The notes: a model not told the origin generated them from the sequence alone. A stretch of DNA of 27,996 bases from Gammaproteobacteria bacterium (GCA_015658965.1 DQNX01000088.1:1-27996); one strand, 5' to 3'; shown: positions 1 through 12,487, numbered from the stretch's first letter. Made by a program: numbers and translations.

Positions 1-221
1 GGATAGATGGTGCGATTCATAAGGCCTGCCATCTAGATGATAAAAGTCGTTACGAGGCTTTAAGTGAATTTTTGTTTGATTTGGAACATCCAAATTCAAC
101 ATTTTTAGTAACAGTGCAAACTGCTGAAAAGCCCGAGTTTACACTTAAGAAATATAAAGTATTAGTCGCAGTGTCTTTTGCAATTAATATATTATTATTA
201 TTGTTATTGATAGTACGTTAG
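1..221 (+). CDS. 3' end (partial) of a probable bifunctional Ser/Thr protein kinase/phosphatase with a C-terminal transmembrane helix
   Basis: Not in the ORF track. Frame 3 is open from base 3 to TAG at 219-221: IDGAIHKACHLDDKSRYEALSEFLFDLEHPN...KYKVLVAVSFAINILLLLLLIVR*. The D-x-A-x-x-K-A...RY-x-x-x-SEF-x-x-DL-x-x-PN pattern resembles the end of a Hanks-type kinase domain (invariant Arg of subdomain XI) in the PP2C-kinase fusions I recall from proteobacterial nitrate-assimilation clusters. The stop overlaps the nirB RBS. Confidence 0.65.
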   Translation, partial: IDGAIHKACHLDDKSRYEALSEFLFDLEHPNSTFLVTVQTAEKPEFTLKKYKVLVAVSFAINILLLLLLIVR

Positions 222-229
222 GAGTAGAT

Positions 230-2659
230 ATGAAAAAAATAGTATTAATCGGAAATGGCATGGCAGGTGTAAGAACCTTAGAAGAGCTATTTAAAATTAC
301 CGAAGAAAAATTTGATATTACCGTATTTGGTAGTGAGCCATATGGCAATTACAACCGTATCATGTTATCTCCAGTATTGGCAGATGAAAAAACCATTGAT
401 GAGATCATGATTAATGATCTAGATTGGTATAAAGACAATGGCATTACCTTGCATACTGATAGCACGATTACCAGTATTAATCGTAGTAGCAAAACCGTGA
501 TGGATGATAAAGGCAATAGTTATGATTATGATAAGTTATTAATTGCAACAGGTTCTAACCCATTTATCCTGCCAATTGAAGGCCATGATTTAGATGGTGT
601 GATTGGTTTTAGAGATATTTCTGACGTTGATCAAATGATTGATGCCGCCAAGAGTCACAAAAATGCGATCGTGATTGGTGGTGGTTTATTAGGGCTAGAA
701 GCGGCTAACGGCTTAATGAAGCAAGGCATGAATGTTACTGTTGTGCATTTACTTGCAGACCTTATGGAAATGCAACTTGATTCCACTGCTTCACAAATGT
801 TATTAACATCACTTATAGAGCGAGGCATGAGCTTCAAGATGGAATCTCAAACGCAAAAACTAATCGCTAATGATAGTGGCCGAGTAAAACAAATTGAGTT
901 TGCAGATGGATCTGCCATGGATACAGATTTAGTGGTCATGGCGGTCGGCATCCGACCAAACTTTGTATTAGCGCAAGAATCTGGTATTTATTGTGAGCGC
1001 GGTATTGTAGTAGACGATACTATGATGACTTATGATCCAAGCATTTATGCAGTTGGCGAATGTATTCAGCATCGTCATCTGTGTTATGGATTAGTTGCGC
1101 CATTATTTGAACAGGCCAAAGTTTGTGCTAATCATTTGGCAGGATACGGTATTGGCATATATGAAGGATCAATCACTTCTACTAAGTTAAAGGTGACTGG
1201 CATCGATCTTTTTTCTGCTGGTAATTTTAAGGGTACAGAAAATAGTGAAGATTTAGTTTTTCAAGATGCTGCCAGAGGCGTGTATAAAAAAATTGTGATT
1301 GAAAATGACACGATTATTGGCTCAGTAATGTATGGTGATACTATTGATGGATCATGGTATTTTCAATTAATGAAAGATGAAAACAATATTGCCGACATGC
1401 GTGATCGTTTATTATTTGGTCAGGCGCACGTAGGTGACTCCGGACATGGCCCGTTAGACATGGTTGCATCCATGGATGATTCGGCAGAGATTTGTGGTTG
1501 TAATGGCATCAGCAAGGGTGATATTACTAATGCTATTAATGAACAAAATTTATTCACTTTAGAAGATGTGCGTGCACACACTAAGGCTTCCAGTTCTTGT
1601 GGTTCTTGTACAGGTCTGGTAGAGCAATTAATCGCTTCGACATTGGGTGGAGAATATTCAGAATCACCTAAGAAAAAACCGATTTGTGGCTGTACAGATC
1701 ACACCAAACAAGAGGTTCATGATTTTATCTTCGACAATAATTTTGAAACGGTATTTGAAGTATTTGCCAGAATGGGCTGGGAAAATGTTGATGGTTGTCA
1801 TGTTTGTCGACCTGAGGTTAATTACTACTTATTAGCCGCCAATCCTGATTACGTAGACGATGCACAATCAAGATTTATTAATGAGCGCTCTCATGGTAAT
1901 ATCCAAAAAGATGGTACTTATTCTGTGGTACCAAGAATGTGGGGTGGTGTTACCACACCACTTGAACTTAGAACCATTGCAGATGTGGTGGATAAGTTCA
2001 ACATACCAACCATGAAAGTGACGGGTGGACAGCGTATTGATTTATTCGGTGTAACTAAAGAAGACCTGCCTAAAGTATGGAAAGATCTCAATGCAGGCGG
2101 GTTGGTTTCTGGCCATGCTTACGGTAAGTCTTTGAGAACAGTTAAGACTTGTGCAGGTGATACCTGGTGTCGATTTGGTACTAAAGACTCTATGGCAATG
2201 GGCATTAAGTTAGAAAAAATAGCCTGGGGATCGTGGATGCCACACAAGTTTAAACTGGCTGTATCAGGCTGCCCTAGAAACTGTGCTGAAGCAACTATTA
2301 AGGACTTTGGCTTGGTGGCAGTTCAATCAGGGTGGGAGCTCCATGTTGGTGGTAATGGCGGTATAAAGGTGAGAGTAACTGATTTATTAACCCGTGTTGA
2401 AAGTGAAGAAGAGGCGATTGAATATGTTGGCGCTTACATTCAGCTTTATCGTGAGGATGCTCTATATTTAGAGAGGACAGCGCCATGGATTGATCGTGTT
2501 GGCCTTTCATTTATTACTGAACAATTGGTCGATGATGAAGATAATAGAAAAGCGCTAAACGCTAGATTCTTAGTTTCTCAAGAAAAATCACAAGATGACC
2601 CATGGAAAGAGCGTGCAGAAGGTGCCCAAAGCCATCAGTTTGAAGTGATCACACTATAA
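230..2659 (+). CDS. nirB: NAD(P)H-dependent nitrite reductase large subunit
   Basis: FAD-binding GNGMAG, NADH-binding GGGLLGLE, two BFD-like [2Fe-2S] motifs (CGCNG...CGSC; CGC...GCHVC), siroheme/[4Fe-4S] ligands KTCAGDTWC and SGCPRNC. AGGAG RBS at 220-224. Confidence 0.97.
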   Translation: MKKIVLIGNGMAGVRTLEELFKITEEKFDITVFGSEPYGNYNRIMLSPVLADEKTIDEIMINDLDWYKDNGITLHTDSTITSINRSSKTVMDDKGNSYDYDKLLIATGSNPFILPIEGHDLDGVIGFRDISDVDQMIDAAKSHKNAIVIGGGLLGLEAANGLMKQGMNVTVVHLLADLMEMQLDSTASQMLLTSLIERGMSFKMESQTQKLIANDSGRVKQIEFADGSAMDTDLVVMAVGIRPNFVLAQESGIYCERGIVVDDTMMTYDPSIYAVGECIQHRHLCYGLVAPLFEQAKVCANHLAGYGIGIYEGSITSTKLKVTGIDLFSAGNFKGTENSEDLVFQDAARGVYKKIVIENDTIIGSVMYGDTIDGSWYFQLMKDENNIADMRDRLLFGQAHVGDSGHGPLDMVASMDDSAEICGCNGISKGDITNAINEQNLFTLEDVRAHTKASSSCGSCTGLVEQLIASTLGGEYSESPKKKPICGCTDHTKQEVHDFIFDNNFETVFEVFARMGWENVDGCHVCRPEVNYYLLAANPDYVDDAQSRFINERSHGNIQKDGTYSVVPRMWGGVTTPLELRTIADVVDKFNIPTMKVTGGQRIDLFGVTKEDLPKVWKDLNAGGLVSGHAYGKSLRTVKTCAGDTWCRFGTKDSMAMGIKLEKIAWGSWMPHKFKLAVSGCPRNCAEATIKDFGLVAVQSGWELHVGGNGGIKVRVTDLLTRVESEEEAIEYVGAYIQLYREDALYLERTAPWIDRVGLSFITEQLVDDEDNRKALNARFLVSQEKSQDDPWKERAEGAQSHQFEVITL

Positions 2660-2675
2660 TTATTAAGGAGTATTT

Positions 2676-2984
2676 ATGTCAAATTGGAAAGAAGTGGTAG
2701 CGTTAGATGGTATTCCAGTATTGGGATCACGAGTGTTTCGTACAGATGAAACGGAAATAGCCATTTTTCGCACTCGAGATGATAGCATTTTTGCTGTGCA
2801 TAACGCATGTCCGCATAAAGGCGGGGTTTTGTCTGAGGGTATTGTTCATGGCCATAAAGTAACCTGTCCGTTACACAACTGGGTTATTAATTTGGAAGAT
2901 GGGGAAGCACAAGGCGCTGATAAAGGTTCAACAGCCTGTTTTGAAACAAAAGTAGAATCAGGCATGGTTTATATTAATTTATAA
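2676..2984 (+). CDS. nirD: Nitrite reductase small subunit (Rieske-type)
   Basis: CPH...CPLH Rieske motifs, 102 aa, directly after nirB, AAGGAG RBS. Confidence 0.95.
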   Translation: MSNWKEVVALDGIPVLGSRVFRTDETEIAIFRTRDDSIFAVHNACPHKGGVLSEGIVHGHKVTCPLHNWVINLEDGEAQGADKGSTACFETKVESGMVYINL

Positions 2985-3034
2985 GCCTGACAAAGAATAA
3001 AGGTGATAAATTTTATTTATAAACAGTATGAGCT

Positions 3035-3190
3035 TTGAGCTGGTTGATTGTTGGGCTTATAATTGCATACAACAATGGTATTGCCGAACCGTATATGATG
3101 GCTATATTCTCCATTGGTAGTTTAATATTTGGCGATATGTTAAAGTTTATGATTAAATTGTATACTGACTTAAATATTCAGTACAAATAG
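3035..3190 (+). CDS. Candidate 51-aa small membrane protein (TTG start)
   Basis: Below the ORF-track cutoff. MSWLIVGLIIAYNNGIAEPYMMAIFSIGSLIFGDMLKFMIKLYTDLNIQYK* has two hydrophobic segments and fills most of the nirD-nasA gap. No clear RBS. Confidence 0.3.
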   Translation: MSWLIVGLIIAYNNGIAEPYMMAIFSIGSLIFGDMLKFMIKLYTDLNIQYK

Positions 3191-3210
3191 AAATTAACTA
3201 GGATAGATCA

Positions 3211-5415
3211 ATGTTACTCAATAGAACTCAAAAAAACCCGATCAAGATTACTGACAAAAAGATTGTCGAATGGAAATATGCCACTTGTGGTTATTGTTCT
3301 ACAGGCTGCTCTATGGAAATAGGATTTAATAAAGAGAACCATGCAGTTTCTTCCAGGGGTGTGGGTGGCGCTGATGTAAATCGTGGCAAGTTATGTCTTA
3401 AAGGAATTATGGAACATGAATTGTTTGCTTCAGCAGGACGTGGCGATAAGCCGTTGATTCGCAAGCACTGGCATGAAGAATTTGAACAGACTGACTGGGA
3501 TACAGCACTAGATGACGTGGCTGATAATATTAAAAAAGTTCAAGCTAAATATGGTCGTGACTCTGTAGCGATTATTTCTACAGGTCAAATGTTGAGTGAA
3601 GAATTTTATACTTTAGGAAAATTAAATCGTGGCTTGATTGGCACCAACAATTATGATGGCAACACCACACTTTGTATGGCATCAGCGGTATCTGGTTATA
3701 AACGCTCATTTGGCTCAGACGGCCCGCCAGGGTGTTATGAAGATTTTGAACATACAGACTGTTTAATTGCTTGGGGTTCAAACTTGCCTGAACAACACCC
3801 GATTATTTATTGGAGAATGAAAGAAGCGCAAGAAAAGCGTAATTTTCCACTCATTGTCGTTGATCCACGTGTCACCATATTTGCTCAGAGTGCAGATATA
3901 CATCTCACCGTCACTCCTGGTACAGATATTGTTTTACAAAATGCATTGATGCACGTGATTCTGAATGAAGGACTACAAGATGAAGACTACATTAAGAAAA
4001 ATACCAATGGTTATGACGAACTGAAAGCGGAGGTCGATAAGTATGACCCAACGACTGCGGCTAAAATTTGCGGTATTGACGAAGATACCATTCGTGTGGT
4101 CGCCAGACTGTTTGCTAAGGCAGGTGCAGCAATGCAAATCTGGACCATGGGTATTAATCAATCTACGCATGGATCTGATGGTGTAGTGGGTATTAACAAT
4201 CTGGCGCTTATTACCGGTAATATCGGTATACCAGGCGGTACAAGTTTGTCGATTACTGGCCAATGTAATGCGATGGGCACCCGAGAATGGTCATCATGCT
4301 CAGGCTTGCCGAATTATCGTGCGTTAGAGAATCCTCAGGATAGAGACGATATTGCTAAATTCTGGAATATTGATGTAGATTTCTTACCAACTAAGCGTGG
4401 TATGTTGCAAACAGATATCTTCCGAGCTATTGAAACCGGTGAAATTAAAGCGTTGTGGCTAATTGCCACCAATCCATTGTCTTCTTTACCTAATACAGCC
4501 AGAATTAGAAAGGCAATGGAGAGGCTAGAGTATTGTGTAGTGCAAGATTGTTACGAAGATACTGAAAGTGCACAATATGCCAATGTATTTTTACCCGCAG
4601 GTACGTGGGCAGAAAAAACTGGCGTAATGACCAATACTGAAAGACGAGTCAATATAGTACGCGGTATTATTGAGCCAAATGGTGATTCGAAGCCAGATTT
4701 TTGGATTTTCAATGAAATGTCCAAACGTTTTAATACCGAAGGAAAGGTAAACTTTCCGACAGAAACTCACGAGGTTTTTGAGGAGATGAAGGTCCTATCT
4801 AAAGGCCGTTTGTGTGATATTTCAGGCATGGATTATGACAAAATTGAAAAGAATCGTGGTATTCAGTGGCCATATACCCAAGAACAGGCAGATAATGGAG
4901 AGCAACCCCCAGCAGGAGGTAAGCGTATCTATACAGAAGACACGACATTTAGATTTGAGGATGGTAAAGCCAAACTCATACCGTTGCCATTTGTTGATAA
5001 TAACGAAGTGCCTGATGAAAGGTATCCAATTTGGTTGAATACTGGCCGTCTAGTCGAGCATTGGCATGGCCGTAGTAAAACTGGAAAAGTGGCCAACAAT
5101 AATAAATTTAGCCCGATTCCATTTATTGAAATTAACCCAGATTTGGCGATAGAAATTGGCGCTAGGGATGGTGACTATGTGCGATTAGTATCTAGACGAT
5201 CAGATGCAATTGTAATGGCCAAGTTTACTAATCGTGTAGCAAAGAATATGGTGTTTTTACCATTCCATTTTCATGATTGCGCAAATCGTTTAACGCTTGG
5301 TTTATTAGACCCTTATTCAAGACAGCCAGCATATAAACAGCAAGCAATAAGGATTGAGACCATTGAAGATCAAAAATCAGCGGCACAGTTAAGTATGGAA
5401 ATGAGAGAATATTAG
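3211..5415 (+). CDS. nasA: Mo-bisPGD oxidoreductase, NasA/NarB-type assimilatory nitrate reductase catalytic subunit
   Basis: N-terminal [4Fe-4S] motif CGYCSTGC...GKLCLKG; Mo-ligand Cys in TTLCMASAVSGY; TGQCNAMGTRE matches the NasA/NapA GQPNAMGGRE motif; C-terminal LNTGR..EHWH molybdopterin-dinucleotide domain; no twin-arginine signal; follows nirBD. Confidence 0.85.
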   Translation: MLLNRTQKNPIKITDKKIVEWKYATCGYCSTGCSMEIGFNKENHAVSSRGVGGADVNRGKLCLKGIMEHELFASAGRGDKPLIRKHWHEEFEQTDWDTALDDVADNIKKVQAKYGRDSVAIISTGQMLSEEFYTLGKLNRGLIGTNNYDGNTTLCMASAVSGYKRSFGSDGPPGCYEDFEHTDCLIAWGSNLPEQHPIIYWRMKEAQEKRNFPLIVVDPRVTIFAQSADIHLTVTPGTDIVLQNALMHVILNEGLQDEDYIKKNTNGYDELKAEVDKYDPTTAAKICGIDEDTIRVVARLFAKAGAAMQIWTMGINQSTHGSDGVVGINNLALITGNIGIPGGTSLSITGQCNAMGTREWSSCSGLPNYRALENPQDRDDIAKFWNIDVDFLPTKRGMLQTDIFRAIETGEIKALWLIATNPLSSLPNTARIRKAMERLEYCVVQDCYEDTESAQYANVFLPAGTWAEKTGVMTNTERRVNIVRGIIEPNGDSKPDFWIFNEMSKRFNTEGKVNFPTETHEVFEEMKVLSKGRLCDISGMDYDKIEKNRGIQWPYTQEQADNGEQPPAGGKRIYTEDTTFRFEDGKAKLIPLPFVDNNEVPDERYPIWLNTGRLVEHWHGRSKTGKVANNNKFSPIPFIEINPDLAIEIGARDGDYVRLVSRRSDAIVMAKFTNRVAKNMVFLPFHFHDCANRLTLGLLDPYSRQPAYKQQAIRIETIEDQKSAAQLSMEMREY

Positions 5416-5423
5416 GAACTATT

Positions 5424-7292
5424 ATGTGGAAAGTGAGAGACGACGAACCAAAAAATGCTTTTTTATGGGATAAAGAAACCAAAGAGAAGAATATCTATGG
5501 CCATTCGATAGAAAAAACCAGTGATGACAGCCCTCTGCGTAATCAGAGTCTAAATATTAATGGCGATAGTAGTGTCGGAGATAATCCAAATCGTTACAAG
5601 CAACATGGCTTTTACTTTAATGCAGATAATTGTATTGGTTGTCATGCTTGTGAATCAGCTTGTAGTGAAAAAAATGACGTTCCTGATCATATAGCATTCC
5701 GTTCAGTTGGCTTTGTTGAAGGCGGATCTTATCCTAATTATCAACGTCTTAATCTTTCTATGGCTTGTAATCATTGTGATGACCCAGTATGTTTGAAGGG
5801 TTGTCCAACACGAGCGTATACTAAATTTGCAGAATACGGCGCTGTATTACAAGATCCAGATATTTGCTTTGGTTGTGGTTATTGCACATGGGTCTGTCCC
5901 TACAATGCACCACAACTAGACCCTGTAAAAGGTCAAGTGAGTAAGTGTAATATGTGTGTGGATCGTCTTGAAGTAGGTCTTCAGCCTGCTTGTGTTGCTG
6001 CTTGTTTGGGGAATGCATTAGATTTTGGTGTGATTGAAAATCTACCTAAGGACAGGGAACAAGCAAAAGTTTCGATTCCAGGTTTTCCAGATCCTAAAAT
6101 TACCCAACCTAATATCCGTTTCCAACAAACTAAAGATACACAGCGAGATATGACCAGACCTGACGGTATGCCAATTAAATATCACAAACAAGATAATGGT
6201 GAATTTAAATCTGTTGTCGATATTGATAAGCATTCATCTAAGAAATATTGGGGTATGCAAAAATTATTGCATTCTCATGAGAATGCACACGCTATCTTTA
6301 CCTTGTGTAGTCAAGCAGCGATGGGTGCAACATTGTGGGTTATTGCATCTCAATTATTAAATTTAGGAGCAGTAAAATCAACCAGCGGTAATGGCATGAT
6401 TCCAATGATTGCAATATTATTAATTCTATTAACCTATGGTTTGATTAAGCTTAATTTACACTTAGGTAAACCACAATTCTTCTATCGTGGTTATTACAAT
6501 CTACGATGGTCTCCAGTTAGTAGAGAAATTGCAGGTGTGACTTTGTTTGTCATTGGTTTGATGATGATGCTATTTGTAGAAATCACAGGATTGAAAATAT
6601 TTGAATATTTTGCTTATGCTGTTACAATTATCGGCTTTGCGTTAGGCTCTTACTATATGTATAAGCTTTACCGTATACCAGCTAGACCATTTTGGGATCA
6701 TTGGCAAACAGGCAGTGCTTTTTACGGCACAGCGCTCAGTCTTGGAAGTTTGGTATTTGGTTTATTGCTAATGCCATTTGGATTGAGCGATGCGGGCATT
6801 ATGCAAATTGCTTCGATTGCTATGTTAGGGTTGGTCTTAGAAAGCATTGGACATATTGTTCATCGCCAAGATGTGAAAAAATTTGGTGAAAGTCAAGCCT
6901 CTTATTTTGAGCAGGTAACGACATTTGGTAAAACTTACCAGATGCGCAATACGCTGTTAGGTGTTAATATGGCTATCATGGTATGGTTAATAATGGAGCC
7001 AAGTGCTTTATTGCTTGCTATGAGTTTTGTATCTGTCTTAGTTTCAGCATATTTGGGTAGGATTTTATTCTATGCCTTGGTGATTCCAACGACGATGCCA
7101 GGTGGTTTTTTCTGGAAGAATGATAAGTTCAAAGAACATGCAATTGAGACGGGATTAGCTGATATGCCACAAATGGGTGTCATGGCAGACCGTCATCATA
7201 AGTTTGACGTTAAAGCGTTGATTGCTGTGATTAAACAGACGACTTTTAAAGAGGCATTTACCCAGATAAAGTCAATCGTTAGAGGTGGCTAG
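5424..7292 (+). CDS. Fusion of DmsB-like 4x[4Fe-4S] ferredoxin and DmsC/NrfD-like membrane anchor
   Basis: Four Cys groups ([11 protein letters not shown]; [14 protein letters not shown]; [12 protein letters not shown]; CNMC...PACVAAC), then about 8 hydrophobic helices with HLGKP and SREI motifs typical of DmsC/YnfH anchors. Confidence 0.88.
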
Positions 7293-8332
7293 ATTGACAC
7301 AATTGGCAGCGTAATGCGACTGTCAAAGTGTGGCCATTCATAACGAATTGGGTAGTTTCTACGGTAAATTTCAAAATTTTCAATATTTTTTATTGCGACT
7401 GTGTCTTGTTTAAAATTGTAAATTTCATTGATAGAATCAAGTAAATTATCACTATTTAGCACTAAAACACCCGGATTTATTAAATTTTTGATGCTATTTC
7501 GTTGTTTTTGGTCAGTAAAGCTGCATAAATCTTCATAAACCATGAAACTACCCATAAACTTAGCATCAACTGAGTGTCCAGCGATATGAGGAGAGGCTAA
7601 ATAGGCCGTTTTTTGTAGATTTTGGTTAATATTTGGCTCGTTTTCCCAGCAATCAATGATATTTTCCAGCGTTTGGGTTTTTTCCCAAATTTCTTCATCG
7701 ATAACACCACCTCTTGCGGCGTTAAAAAGGATGGTTTTGTCACTAATATGATGAAAATTAGCCTGATTTAGCAACTTGAAGCTCGGATATTCGCCGTCAA
7801 AGGTCAGCGGCGTGTGAAAAGTAACCATATCAGCACTTAACGCGGTATCAAGATCAACAAAATTTGGCAAATTTTCATTATCCTGACGAATAGGATCGTT
7901 AAGCAGGGTTTTGACACCTAAAAGCTTGGCTTTTGCCGCTAAGCGCGAGCCAACATTACCCACACCAATAATCCCTAAGGTTTTTTCTCGATAATTAAAG
8001 TTATGCTTGTTAGCTAGATTGATAATCGTGCTAATCACAAATTCAGCCACTGCCATCGAGTTGCAACCTTGTGCTGAGAAAAATCGAATATTGTTATCCT
8101 TAAGGTATTGCTGGTCAACATGATCAAGCCCAGCGACTGTAGAGCCTACAAATTTAATACAGCTACCCTCGAGTAGTGCTTGATCAACTTTGGTACGTGA
8201 GCGTACAATTAAAACGTCAGAATCTTTAACGGATTTAGCGTTAATATCGCGCCCAGCCATAGCAGTAATTTCACCAAATTGAGAAAAAATTTCATTATAG
8301 GCATAGCAAGTATCGTCAATAATTAGTTTCAT
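7289..8332 (-). CDS. pdxB: Erythronate-4-phosphate dehydrogenase
   Basis: [46 protein letters not shown] motifs of PdxB. Confidence 0.92.
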
Positions 8333-8334
8333 GG

Positions 8335-8988
8335 TTACCAGTTAATGGGGTGTAGATTATGCATTTTAAGGTACTCGTTAGTTTGAGAAAAATGTTTGCA
8401 ACCAAAAAAACCTTTATGTGCAGAAAAGGGTGAAGGGTGTGCAGCCGTTAAAACTAAGTGTTTATTCAGATCAATCTGCTCTATTTTTTGTTGAGCATAT
8501 GCGCCCCATAATATAAATACCAAGTTTTGTTTCTTTTCATTGAGTATATCAATCACTGTGTCAGTAAAGTTAACCCAGCCGGATTTAGCATGCGATGCTG
8601 GCGAGTTTTTTTCAACCGTGAGTACGCTGTTGAGTAGCAGTATGCCTTGTGATGCCCAATGGGTTAAATTTCCATTTTTGCTGGGTTTGATATTAAGATC
8701 TAATTCCAGTTCTTGATAAATATTTTTCAATGATGGTGGAATGGTAATGCCATCAGGCACTGAAAAGCTTAAACCATGCGCTTGCCCTTCATTATGATAA
8801 GGGTCTTGCCCGAGAATAACGACCTTAGTATTGTCAAAACTACTTAAATTAAAGGCATTAAAAATTTCATCTTTAGGCGGATAGATAATTTTATTGTGGG
8901 TGGATTCGTATTCTAGAAATTCAAGCAGCTGTTGATAGTAATCCTGCTCAAAAATAAAATCTAACTCCCTAGACCAGTCATCTGTCAA
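8335..8988 (-). CDS. ung: Uracil-DNA glycosylase
   Basis: [36 protein letters not shown] family-1 UDG motifs. The ORF extends to a GTG at 9003; the TTG at 8988 overlapping the upstream stop (TTGA) is my preferred start. Confidence 0.96.
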
Positions 8989-10507: not shown

Positions 10508-11112
10508 TGAAAAAATTCTTTAGTCTGTTTTTATTACCACTGTTATTGAGCGGCTGTTTTTCAACACCTGCAGTTACAGTGAATAATATTTGTACGCTGA
10601 TGGATGAAGAAGTCAGTTGGTATCGAGCGGTTAAAGCGGCTGAGAAAAAACACGGTGCACCTGCGCATGTCTCGCTCGCGATGATGTATCAAGAGTCAAA
10701 TTTTGCTTCTGATGCCGAACCACCCAGAGAAAAACTGTTTGGTGTTGTGCCTTGGTTCCGGCCGACAAGTGCTTATGGTTTCGCGCAAGCAGTCGATAGT
10801 ACTTGGGAATGGTACCAATTAAAGACCGGAAATTACACCGCAGATCGCGACGATTTTGAAGATGCAGCTGATTTTATTGCCTGGTATATTGATCAATCTT
10901 CAAAGCGCTCAGGCATTGCTAAGTCTGATGCTTATCATCAATATTTGGCTTATCATGAAGGTCATGGTGGCTTTAATAAAAAATCATACAAGAAAAAACC
11001 TTGGTTGATGGAAGTCGCCAAAAAAGTAGAAAAGAATGCCAAGCGCTATCAGCAACAATTAAATCAATGTTCATCAGCCCTTGATAGTAATAGTATCTGG
11101 AGGATTTTTTAA
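10507..11112 (+). CDS. Lipoprotein with SLT-like lytic transglycosylase domain
   Basis: Lipobox LLLSGC after MKK plus hydrophobic stretch; MYQESNF catalytic Glu motif; SAYGFAQA; YLAYHEG. Confidence 0.8.
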   Translation: MKKFFSLFLLPLLLSGCFSTPAVTVNNICTLMDEEVSWYRAVKAAEKKHGAPAHVSLAMMYQESNFASDAEPPREKLFGVVPWFRPTSAYGFAQAVDSTWEWYQLKTGNYTADRDDFEDAADFIAWYIDQSSKRSGIAKSDAYHQYLAYHEGHGGFNKKSYKKKPWLMEVAKKVEKNAKRYQQQLNQCSSALDSNSIWRIF

Positions 11113-11414
11113 TGCCTTCTTGGATAAAGGTTTTGGATCAAGCGCCTAAAGAAGGCACAATGGTAGAAATCACAGTAGCAGGCAAAGATTTGTTTGTAAC
11201 CCTGAATAATGGGCATTTGTATTGTGCAGAAAATCGTTGCCCACATGAGGACATCAAACTTACATTGGGCTGTTTAAAGGGCGATCGAGTTAAGTGTTCA
11301 TTACACGGCTATAGTTTTGACTTGGAAACAGGCGATTCGTCAGAGGTTGATGTCGAGAATATGCAGACCTATCCAGTTAAACAAGAAAACAAACAAATTT
11401 ATATCGAGATTTAA
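11112..11414 (+). CDS. Rieske [2Fe-2S] ferredoxin
   Basis: CPHED...CSLHGYSFDLETG motif pair, 100 aa, soluble. Confidence 0.9.
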   Translation: MPSWIKVLDQAPKEGTMVEITVAGKDLFVTLNNGHLYCAENRCPHEDIKLTLGCLKGDRVKCSLHGYSFDLETGDSSEVDVENMQTYPVKQENKQIYIEI

Positions 11415-11416
11415 TT

Positions 11417-12487
11417 ATGAGTACAGATTCTAAAGCATTAATGAAATCCATTATCCAGCGTATTGCCACCGGCCCTGATTTGAGTAAGAATATTGATTTT
11501 GAAGAAGCCAAAGGCGGCATGCAAGCGGTGCTTCGTGGCGAGATTGATGATGTTCAATCGGCTATTTTCTTAATTGCTTTACGTATGAAGCGCGAAACCA
11601 TGGAAGAAAATGAAGGTATCTTGGCGGCTATTTTAGCTGAGAGTGATAAGCAAACTGTAAATGTCGAGCATTTGGTAGATTTAGGTGATCCATACAGTGG
11701 ATATAATCGATCCATTCCCATTTCGTCTTTTTTACCACCGTTATTAGCTGAACTTGGCTTGCCTACGGTTATTCATGGGCTAGACAGTGTTTCACCTAAG
11801 TTTGGCTTAACCCACCGCCATATTAGTGAGGCGTTAGGCTTGAGTGTTGATCATTCGACGGCCGAGGCGAAAGCAAGAATAGAAAACCCTGATATTGGCT
11901 GGTCATATATAGATCAAGCCAGTTATTGTAAGGGCTTGCATAACATTGTCTCTTTGCGTAATCGTGTGATTAAGCGCACCGTTGTTAATACAGTAGAGAC
12001 ATTGATTGCGCCATTACGCGGCAAAACCACGCACGCTATTTTGGGTTATGTGCATAAACCTTACCCACCAATTTACGCAAACTTGGTTAAAGCGTCGGGT
12101 GTCGATAGTGCTTTATTAATTCGCGGCGTTGAGGGTGGGGTGATCCCGTCACTACGCCAAAAAGGATTAATGATTTCTTATAAAGGCACGGATGAGCAGG
12201 ATCGTGTGGATATTGATCCGGCATCATTGGGGATTGAGCGAGACATGCGCGCCATCTCATTTCCAGGCGAGCTAGATGTGCATCAAAATATTACCGAGTT
12301 GGCGGACTATACAGTTAAGCTGGGTAAATCCGCACTTTCTGGTGAACAAGGTATGTTTTATGACGGTCTAGTTTTATCAGCCAGCTTGGTACTTTGGCAT
12401 ACTAAAAAAGCCGAATCATTAGTGGATGCATCACAGATGGCCAGAGAAGTTCTAGATTCTGGCAAAGCGTTATCACGTCTAACATAG
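11417..12487 (+). CDS. Anthranilate phosphoribosyltransferase-fold protein (TrpD2/YbiB-like), probably non-canonical
   Basis: Helical N-terminal domain (AIFLIALRMKRET) and GT-3/PRT-like layout, but the TrpD GTGGD and KHGNR motifs appear replaced by DPYSGYN and IHGLD. Confidence 0.7.
   Translation: MSTDSKALMKSIIQRIATGPDLSKNIDFEEAKGGMQAVLRGEIDDVQSAIFLIALRMKRETMEENEGILAAILAESDKQTVNVEHLVDLGDPYSGYNRSIPISSFLPPLLAELGLPTVIHGLDSVSPKFGLTHRHISEALGLSVDHSTAEAKARIENPDIGWSYIDQASYCKGLHNIVSLRNRVIKRTVVNTVETLIAPLRGKTTHAILGYVHKPYPPIYANLVKASGVDSALLIRGVEGGVIPSLRQKGLMISYKGTDEQDRVDIDPASLGIERDMRAISFPGELDVHQNITELADYTVKLGKSALSGEQGMFYDGLVLSASLVLWHTKKAESLVDASQMAREVLDSGKALSRLT

Follow-up and report, generated by a model that had tools for sequence, protein, structure and literature searches.

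From where does a nitrate reductase draw its electrons when its gene is followed, after 8 nucleotides (nt), by a gene for a ferredoxin fused to a membrane anchor? The question is raised by two genes at positions 3,211-7,292 of a 27,996-nt stretch of DNA from Gammaproteobacteria bacterium (GCA_015658965.1 DQNX01000088.1:1-27996), hereafter the window, which is the whole of contig C138 of a 1.13-Mb metagenome-assembled genome (MAG) that is 89.6% complete. Classical assimilatory nitrate reductases are soluble and are fed by NADH, ferredoxin or flavodoxin. An original prediction, made from the window alone, had proposed that this one is anchored in the membrane and fed by quinol. We consider it rather probable that the two genes encode a two-polypeptide, three-module inner-membrane enzyme on the cytoplasmic face, which would act as a quinol:nitrate oxidoreductase for nitrogen assimilation.

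The catalytic subunit and its fused membrane partner

Both open reading frames and the gap between them were confirmed as the original prediction had drawn them. The features that carry the argument are as follows.

3211..5415, + strand: catalytic subunit (P0001), 734 amino acids (aa), a molybdenum-bis(pyranopterin guanine dinucleotide) (Mo-bisPGD) protein of a Nas-like, anchor-partnered clade (Pfam domains, tree)
3286..3396, + strand: FS0 [4Fe-4S] motif, Cys26/29/33/62 (aligns with FS0 of NapA, FdhF and classical NasA)
3670..3687, + strand: LCMASA, Mo-ligand Cys155 followed by Met (aligns with LCMASA of Desulfovibrio desulfuricans NapA; invariant in nine partnered homologues)
4255..4287, + strand: active-site segment TGQCNAMG-TRE, Thr349 to Glu359 (Nas/Nap pattern TGQ...RE)
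5416..5423, + strand: intergenic spacer of 8 nt (TAG, 8 bases, ATG), with the stop codon overlapping an AGGA Shine-Dalgarno-like motif
5424..7292, + strand: fused Fe-S/anchor subunit (P0002), 622 aa (Pfam Fer4_11 and DmsC; AlphaFold; Foldseek)
5424..5600, + strand: N-terminal extension, residues 1-59, family-specific and not a signal peptide (no RR motif, no hydrophobic stretch)
5631..6005, + strand: 16 Cys in four groups for four [4Fe-4S] clusters, residues 70-194 (Cys positions; DmsB alignment)
6276..7097, + strand: DmsC-like anchor with eight transmembrane (TM) helices, residues 285-558 (hhalign to Escherichia coli DmsC residues 6-283, 99.3% probability; AlphaFold helices)
6459..6527, + strand: predicted quinol site in the TM2-TM3 loop, His346 (HLGKP, residues 346-350), Ser363 and Glu368 (alignment to DmsC)
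7098..7289, + strand: C-terminal tail, residues 559-622, family-specific and predicted cytoplasmic (E. coli DmsC alignment stops at 558)

Pfam recognizes Molybdop_Fe4S4, Molybdopterin and Molydop_binding domains in the catalytic subunit and nothing further; no BFD domain was matched. Its N-terminus contains no twin-arginine motif, a single Arg and no hydrophobic stretch, while the E. coli NapA and DmsA controls show both motif and stretch. The original claim that this protein lacks a twin-arginine translocation (Tat) signal and a C-terminal BFD module thus stands. The FS0 Cys, LCM(A/S)SA and TGQ...RE columns are common to the catalytic subunit, 11 classical NasA-like sequences and E. coli NapA. 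In a residue-level alignment, formate dehydrogenases (FdhF, G413) carry Cys/Sec-His at the Cys155-Met position and RGQ (RGQNNVQG) at the TGQ position. Judged from these motifs, the active site is of the nitrate reductase (Nas/Nap) type and not of the formate dehydrogenase type.

Among solved structures, D. desulfuricans NapA comes closest to the catalytic subunit, at 422 bits, followed by formate dehydrogenases of the FdhF type at about 410 bits. Neither the catalytic subunit nor the fusion protein reaches any NCBIfam equivalog cut-off. The catalytic subunit scores 498.7 bits with the NasC model (NF047855; cut-off 1100), 478.8 with NasA_Halo (NF041323; cut-off 1000) and 427 with NapA (cut-off 904), and much less with DmsA (TIGR02166; 153.3 versus 777.7 bits) and NarG (TIGR01580; 45.5 versus 1084 bits). 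All nine partnered homologues share a conserved peptide of about 25 residues at the N-terminus (MLFGR..KNP..., encoded at 3211-3285), which is absent from classical NasA.

The second protein joins two modules that E. coli makes separately. Residues 60-253 match E. coli DmsB across its full length at 38% identity, with a DmsB-type model score (TIGR02951) of 164.9 bits that lies below the cut-off of 214. All 16 Cys are invariant in an alignment of 30 family members (30-80% identity). The Pfam DmsC model (PF04976) matches residues 285-552 with 73.2 bits (cut-off 22.3), and the AlphaFold model (predicted local distance difference test score, pLDDT, 78.5; predicted template modelling score, pTM, 0.78) contains eight transmembrane helices. 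With Foldseek, the best matches of this model are PsrB (2vpw_B) and PsrC (2vpw_C) of polysulfide reductase, and ActC is matched as well. The Cys pattern, the hhalign alignment and the model bear out the original description of the protein as a four-cluster ferredoxin joined to an eight-helix DmsC-like anchor.

Neither end of the fusion protein has a counterpart in DmsB or DmsC. The N-terminal extension is conserved in gammaproteobacterial members and shorter in more distant ones, while the 64-residue tail has near-invariant P559, F563 and N566 and low AlphaFold confidence. Together with the 25-residue peptide of the catalytic subunit, these 59- and 64-residue extensions may be docking elements between the two proteins. 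We also observed that several public records, like the automatically assigned name of the closest Atlas cluster, label the fusion protein or its homologues (P0007, P0056, P0114, P0120) "aspartate carbamoyltransferase", other labels being dimethyl sulfoxide (DMSO) reductase subunit B or anchor subunit.

His346, Ser363 and Glu368 align with His65, Ser82 and Glu87 of E. coli DmsC (hhalign) and are invariant in the 30-member alignment. The equivalence of the HLGKP His to the quinol-site His of DmsC, as originally proposed, is thus upheld by alignment and conservation. His346 is the sole invariant His of the membrane domain, making a haem-based transmembrane electron path unlikely. Replacement of His65 in E. 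coli DmsC stopped quinol oxidation, and Ser82 was proposed as a conserved quinone-site residue of NrfD-like anchors (PMC8076601). Roles in quinol oxidation and binding are ascribed to DmsC His65 and Glu87 (PMC8076601, and the title of Geijer & Weiner 2004, as cited in PMC6303296).

Neither a Tat motif nor a hydrophobic N-terminal region was found in any of the 30 fusion proteins or the nine partnered catalytic subunits, while both are present in the E. coli NapA and DmsA controls. Loop Lys and Arg residues of the 30 fusion proteins average 7.7 on the Fe-S (N-terminal) side versus 0.6 on the opposite side. From this charge bias and the missing export signals, the Fe-S domain, the quinol-site loop, the 4-5 and 6-7 loops and the C-terminal tail are predicted to be cytoplasmic, which supports the cytoplasm-facing orientation originally suggested. 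In the published topology of E. coli DmsC the termini are periplasmic, and DmsAB is Tat-exported. The charge bias of E. coli DmsC runs in the opposite direction and is weaker, by a rough hand count on the hhalign rows. The whole Fe-S and anchor module is therefore predicted to be inverted relative to E. coli DmsC. An inverted orientation was also proposed for SoeC (PMC8076601).

Gene pairing, phylogeny and neighbourhood

The occurrence of the two genes was followed in an even set of 400 Pseudomonadota and 60 relatives (about 460 genomes). Four of the 400 Pseudomonadota carry a full-length fusion gene, each with a gene for a 725-741-aa catalytic homologue (65-70% identity) directly upstream on the same strand. 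Among the relatives, ten carry the fusion and the identical ten carry the high-identity catalytic subunit, the two genes being adjacent in eight. All 14 fusion genomes thus have a short catalytic subunit at 65-96% identity; the genes are adjacent and co-oriented in 12, on different contigs in one (G450) and represented by contig-end fragments in another (G419). No sampled genome without the fusion has a catalytic match above 40% identity. A further 221 genomes gave matches at E ≤ 1e-60; the best match in each is at most 40% identical and in most cases a frame of about 900 aa, the length that classical NasA with its C-terminal extension should have. The pair had been expected in other genomes, and within this sample its co-occurrence is strict.

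A phylogeny of the catalytic subunit, which the original prediction had put forward as a check, was obtained as a quick maximum-likelihood IQ-TREE tree of the nine partnered catalytic subunits, classical NasA, E. coli NapA, FdhF and E. coli DmsA. The nine partnered subunits form one clade on a long stem (Shimodaira-Hasegawa-like approximate likelihood ratio test, SH-aLRT, 100). Classical NasA forms another clade (SH-aLRT 99), which joins E. coli NapA (SH-aLRT 83) apart from the partnered clade and FdhF; the order of these three lineages is not settled by the tree, in which E. coli DmsA is the most distant row. Identity between the catalytic subunit and classical NasA is 30-40%. On this sequence evidence the catalytic subunit is a member of a distinct anchor-partnered clade outside classical NasA. 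The original assignment to the NasA/NarB type consequently holds for the Nas/Nap-like active site but not for the protein as a whole, which is no ordinary NasA/NarB given its separate clade, identities of at most 40% and scores below the NCBIfam cut-offs.

The genes around the pair point to nitrate assimilation. In the window, the two genes form the end of an operon at the left end of the stretch, ordered nirB, nirD, a 226-nt spacer, the molybdenum enzyme and the fusion gene; on the 3' side lie a convergent pdxB and then housekeeping genes. The further features of this region are as follows.

230..2659, + strand: nirB, large subunit of an assimilatory NADH-dependent nitrite reductase, 809 aa (TIGR02374, 935.8 bits versus cut-off 578; Pfam Pyr_redox_2, two BFD, NIR_SIR)
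2676..2984, + strand: nirD, Rieske-like small subunit of nitrite reductase, 102 aa (TIGR02378, 102.4 bits versus cut-off 74.65)
2985..3210, + strand: spacer between nirD and the nitrate reductase gene, 226 nt, variable (alignment with related loci)
3035-3190, + strand: possible hydrophobic open reading frame in this spacer, 51 codons, TTG start (status uncertain)

Ten loci were examined beyond the sampled genomes, and in every one the fusion gene belongs to a nitrate-assimilation cluster. On SUP05 contig L004 the cluster comprises a mobA-like gene, moaE, a NarK-type major facilitator superfamily (MFS) transporter, a PP2C/protein-kinase fusion, nirB, nirD, the molybdenum enzyme and the fusion. 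The same core was found in a Methylococcales locus (L006) and in L007 and L008 with a PhzF-family gene inserted, and L007 and L008 also have NrtABC and an ANTAR (NasT-like) regulator. Nitrospirota-labelled members (42-46% identity) are neighboured by P-II genes, MFS, nirBD, molybdenum cofactor genes and NrtABC. At 35-40% identity, the neighbours are a NirA-type or NirBD nitrite reductase, sirohaem synthase, molybdenum cofactor genes, amtB and glnB, and the gene order is sometimes reversed. By source names the module is spread over sulfur oxidisers, methanotrophs and Nitrospirota, to which automatic Atlas taxa add Acidobacteriota. Cultivated carriers are among them, with homologues of about 60% identity in a Methylococcales methanotroph, Cycloclasticus and Thiothrix. 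Close homologues bear names that include Candidatus Thioglobus autotrophicus and Bathymodiolus and scallop gill symbionts, which identifies the source of the window as an uncultured marine sulfur oxidiser of the SUP05 clade (SUP05/Thioglobus group).

Metatranscriptome contigs from two independent studies (seawater and a hydrothermal vent) cover nirB, nirD, the molybdenum enzyme and the fusion gene at 92-100% identity. A 537-nt contig from an RNA library spans 5248-5782 and bridges the 8-nt junction. In these RNA runs the neighbouring genes at 7681-8960 have next to no coverage, although such contigs cannot rank expression and uncovered bins are no sign of silence. These observations fit transcription of the operon in situ.

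Several side observations concern the genes and spacers near the pair. The inserted PhzF-family gene (about 303 aa; L006 6772-7683, L007 6840-7754) lies between nirD and the nitrate reductase gene and was not seen in the SUP05 loci. The PP2C-phosphatase/Ser-Thr-kinase fusion (about 570 aa) is found near the NarK-type transporter and nirB in L004 (1803-4976), L006, L007 and L041, that is, in SUP05, Methylococcales and Nitrospirota-labelled loci, and may control nitrate uptake or assimilation at the post-translational level. The window begins just downstream of the position expected for this gene. Further along, at 11112-12487, a gene for a 100-aa Rieske [2Fe-2S] ferredoxin stands directly 5' of a family-3 glycosyl/phosphoribosyl-transferase-like gene, a pair kept in SUP05 contig L004.

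The nirD spacer is 47 nt long in the related SUP05 contig L004 versus 226 nt here, and has an 81-nt deletion in G405. In G403 a longer open frame of about 58 codons, read by eye, would encode a hydrophobic peptide. The frame at 3035-3190 may be a small membrane protein or the remnant of one; Pfam and Rfam gave no match for the spacer or its frame, and an Rfam scan of the whole window gave none either. A promoter and terminator scan of positions 1-7600 returned counts not above those of shuffled sequence, and a single 10/12 promoter-like site in the spacer was given no weight.

Electron supply and competing explanations

How could such an enzyme work? Ubiquinol would be oxidised at the cytoplasmic TM2-TM3 loop site of the DmsC-like anchor (His346, Ser363, Glu368), and the electrons would pass through the four [4Fe-4S] clusters of the DmsB-like domain to FS0 (Cys26/29/33/62) and on to Mo-bisPGD (Cys155). 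Nitrate would there be reduced to nitrite, which NirBD would then reduce to ammonium with NADH. The potential gap between quinol and nitrate is large, as in NarGHI, so that no energy input would be needed. With no haem ligands and with the quinol site on the Fe-S side, the reaction is most likely electroneutral, with protons both set free and taken up in the cytoplasm; if the anchor instead had a proton path to the outside, of the kind suggested for other NrfD-like anchors, the enzyme would be electrogenic. We infer complex formation, quinol as the donor, nitrate as the substrate, the membrane location of the activity and electroneutrality.

The gene content of the MAG bears on the choice of donor. 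There is no separate NasC/NasB diaphorase gene in the window. BFD domains were found in the MAG only in NirB (two) and in a 124-aa open frame on contig C89 (one). No flavodoxin was found, and no NarG above noise, in this 89.6%-complete genome. The sole other molybdopterin-family match is a fragment followed by three more frames, read from its neighbours as NuoG-H-I-J. The end of a NarK-like gene lies at the edge of contig C91.

Several points weigh against a quinol-fed membrane enzyme. Four plant-type ferredoxin matches are present in the MAG, and at 89.6% completeness the absence of a gene from it is weak evidence. NirB of the operon itself has an NADH/flavin adenine dinucleotide (FAD)/[2Fe-2S] module, and Gates et al. 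are said to have described, in 2011, a NirB-like protein and a Rieske protein that feed the nitrate reductase of Paracoccus, making an NADH route conceivable here. The original statement that the window holds no NasC/NasB gene is thus correct, but this gene content does not by itself exclude supply by NADH. The top NCBIfam score of the catalytic subunit is that of the formate dehydrogenase alpha model (Fdh-alpha, TIGR01591), 565.1 bits versus a cut-off of 666.25, with no cut-off reached. The orientation is a prediction from the positive-inside rule and the lack of export signals. In G450, a high-GC gammaproteobacterium and the only unlinked case, the catalytic gene is beside nirB (L013 4163-6400) and the fusion gene lies elsewhere (L014 3901-5739). 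The RNA contigs are no proof of a single transcript, and DNA carry-over is possible.

Among the alternatives, it is unlikely that the same membrane complex is mainly dissimilatory, either as a redox sink for excess quinol electrons, a role already raised in the original prediction, or as an energy-conserving enzyme, electrogenic like NarGHI via an NrfD-type proton path. In favour of such a role, SUP05 bacteria are nitrate reducers although NarG was not found in this MAG; every examined locus, however, holds assimilatory genes (nirBD or NirA, NrtABC, NasT, glnB/amtB). The pair is present in 4 of 11 other species of the genus, which marks it as an accessory trait and fits an accessory trait for the use of a nitrogen source. 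Proton pathways have been proposed across haem-less NrfD-like anchors, those of Qrc and others (PMC6303296, PMC8076601), but half-channels are poorly defined in DmsC and SoeC (PMC8076601).

We regard it as similarly improbable that the fusion protein is a mere tether or electron wire. The electrons would then come from NADH via NirB/NirD, as with Paracoccus NasBGC, or from a soluble ferredoxin, and the DmsC-like domain would serve localisation or regulation. Such a role is hard to square with the quinol-site His, Ser and Glu, which are invariant down to 30% identity. NirB (FAD/NADH, two BFD) and the Rieske protein NirD are encoded directly upstream and could fill the donor role, yet in some loci the nitrite reductase is of the NirA type and the visible part contains no NirB. 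The ferredoxin genes of the MAG and the unlinked genes of G450 also speak for it. Against it stand the strict co-occurrence of both genes and the lack, in the partnered clade, of the BFD module carried by classical NasA, most classical matches being the longer frames of about 900 aa.

It is very unlikely that the molybdoenzyme acts on another substrate (formate, chlorate, selenate or another oxyanion) and stands beside nirBD incidentally, because, although it reaches no curated nitrate reductase cut-off, has Fdh-alpha as its best NCBIfam score and falls in a clade apart from classical NasA and NapA, its Cys-Met and TGQ...RE motifs are those of Nas/Nap, the formate dehydrogenase signature (Cys/Sec-His, RGQ) is missing, and nitrite reductase and nitrate transporter genes are linked to it in every examined locus, including the Nitrospirota-labelled ones. 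The formate dehydrogenase reading suggested by the best model score was rejected on the same motifs.

Relation to known enzymes and meaning

The proposed quinol:nitrate oxidoreductase shares features with several known systems. Classical NasA, NasC and NarB (Klebsiella/Paracoccus, Bacillus subtilis NasC, cyanobacterial NarB) are likewise cytoplasmic, without a Tat signal, with FS0, with the Mo-bisPGD Cys in LCM(A/S)SA and TGQ...RE, and encoded beside nirBD and transporters. Unlike them, the catalytic subunit here falls in a separate clade, scores below the cut-offs, has no BFD module, has the extra N-terminal peptide and has a membrane Fe-S/anchor partner. Its best solved relative is the monomeric NapA of D. 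desulfuricans (PDB 2NAP; 422 bits over residues 16-715), which has the same LCMASA and TGQ...R motifs. That NapA is Tat-exported, periplasmic and cytochrome-fed; the protein described here, by contrast, lacks a signal peptide and is paired with an Fe-S/anchor protein.

With E. coli DmsABC the fusion protein shares the four-cluster Fe-S domain (38% identity to DmsB), a haem-less eight-helix anchor that aligns end-to-end with DmsC, and the kept His65 and Glu87. It differs in the lack of a Tat signal, the predicted cytoplasmic Fe-S side, the fused subunits and a catalytic subunit that is not DmsA-like. SoeABC of Allochromatium vinosum and Aquifex aeolicus offers a parallel: it is likewise a Mo-bisPGD enzyme for which a cytoplasm-facing position is predicted, and its anchor would be inverted, free of haem and have the quinone site at the N-side; the site residues of SoeC are listed as His65, Ser82 and Glu87, numbered as in DmsC (PMC8076601). 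SoeB and SoeC are, however, separate proteins and are fused here, Soe oxidises sulfite and reduces quinone, and the catalytic subunit here is Nas-like, a distinction from Soe made by description. The best unfused Fe-S matches in the sampled genomes (G397, G200, G020) were considered as SoeB/SoeC references and rejected, as they belong to DmsA-family complexes. NarGHI shares the quinol:nitrate chemistry (predicted here), a cytoplasmic active site and a four-cluster Fe-S subunit, but NarI is a dihaem cytochrome b with a periplasmic-side quinol site and the enzyme is electrogenic (PMC6303296), whereas the anchor here is haem-less and DmsC-like. The enzyme would thus resemble NarGHI in chemistry, SoeABC in orientation and anchor type, and NasA in physiological role, while for each of the three families one of the defining features that were tested is lacking in it.

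Has such an enzyme been described before? Full-text literature searches, in which most subscription journals were not covered, found no prior description, in agreement with the original prediction. No complex with a Nas-type catalytic subunit figures in the catalogue of known complexes on NrfD-like anchors given by a 2021 review, and the words "assimilatory", "fused" and "fusion" are absent from that review (PMC8076601). An Atlas cluster of Acidobacteriota relatives is automatically named "Nitrate reductase (Quinol-dependent), transmembrane subunit", from which it appears that at least one annotator has drawn the same quinol connection. The origin of this name was revealed neither by a homologue search with P0129 nor by looking up the clusters of ten representatives; the look-up showed Nitrospirota members.

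Textbooks recognize two kinds of bacterial assimilatory nitrate reductase, NADH-dependent and ferredoxin/flavodoxin-dependent, both soluble. In our judgement the chances are slightly better than even that the pair represents a third, widespread class, membrane-bound, cytoplasm-facing and quinol-dependent, with its own catalytic clade and a fused partner of the DmsB-DmsC type. Such a third route would alter what nitrate assimilation costs in energy in any organism for which NADH is expensive. It also has a bearing on annotation: with an anchor that is mislabelled and a catalytic subunit that passes no curated nitrate reductase model, metagenomic surveys may miscount both nitrate assimilation and DMSO respiration.

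Chemolithoautotrophs and methanotrophs spend proton-motive force on making NADH. If the first two of the eight electrons needed for each nitrate come from quinol, growth on nitrate would be cheaper, chiefly for these organisms. Should the anchor move protons outward, the enzyme might even be electrogenic. A sulfur-oxidising autotroph would save one of four NADH per nitrate, which it must otherwise generate through reverse electron flow. Oxygen-minimum zones and hydrothermal plumes are rich in SUP05 bacteria, and the enzyme, if it works as proposed, would matter for modelling how nitrate is used and nitrite produced in these settings.

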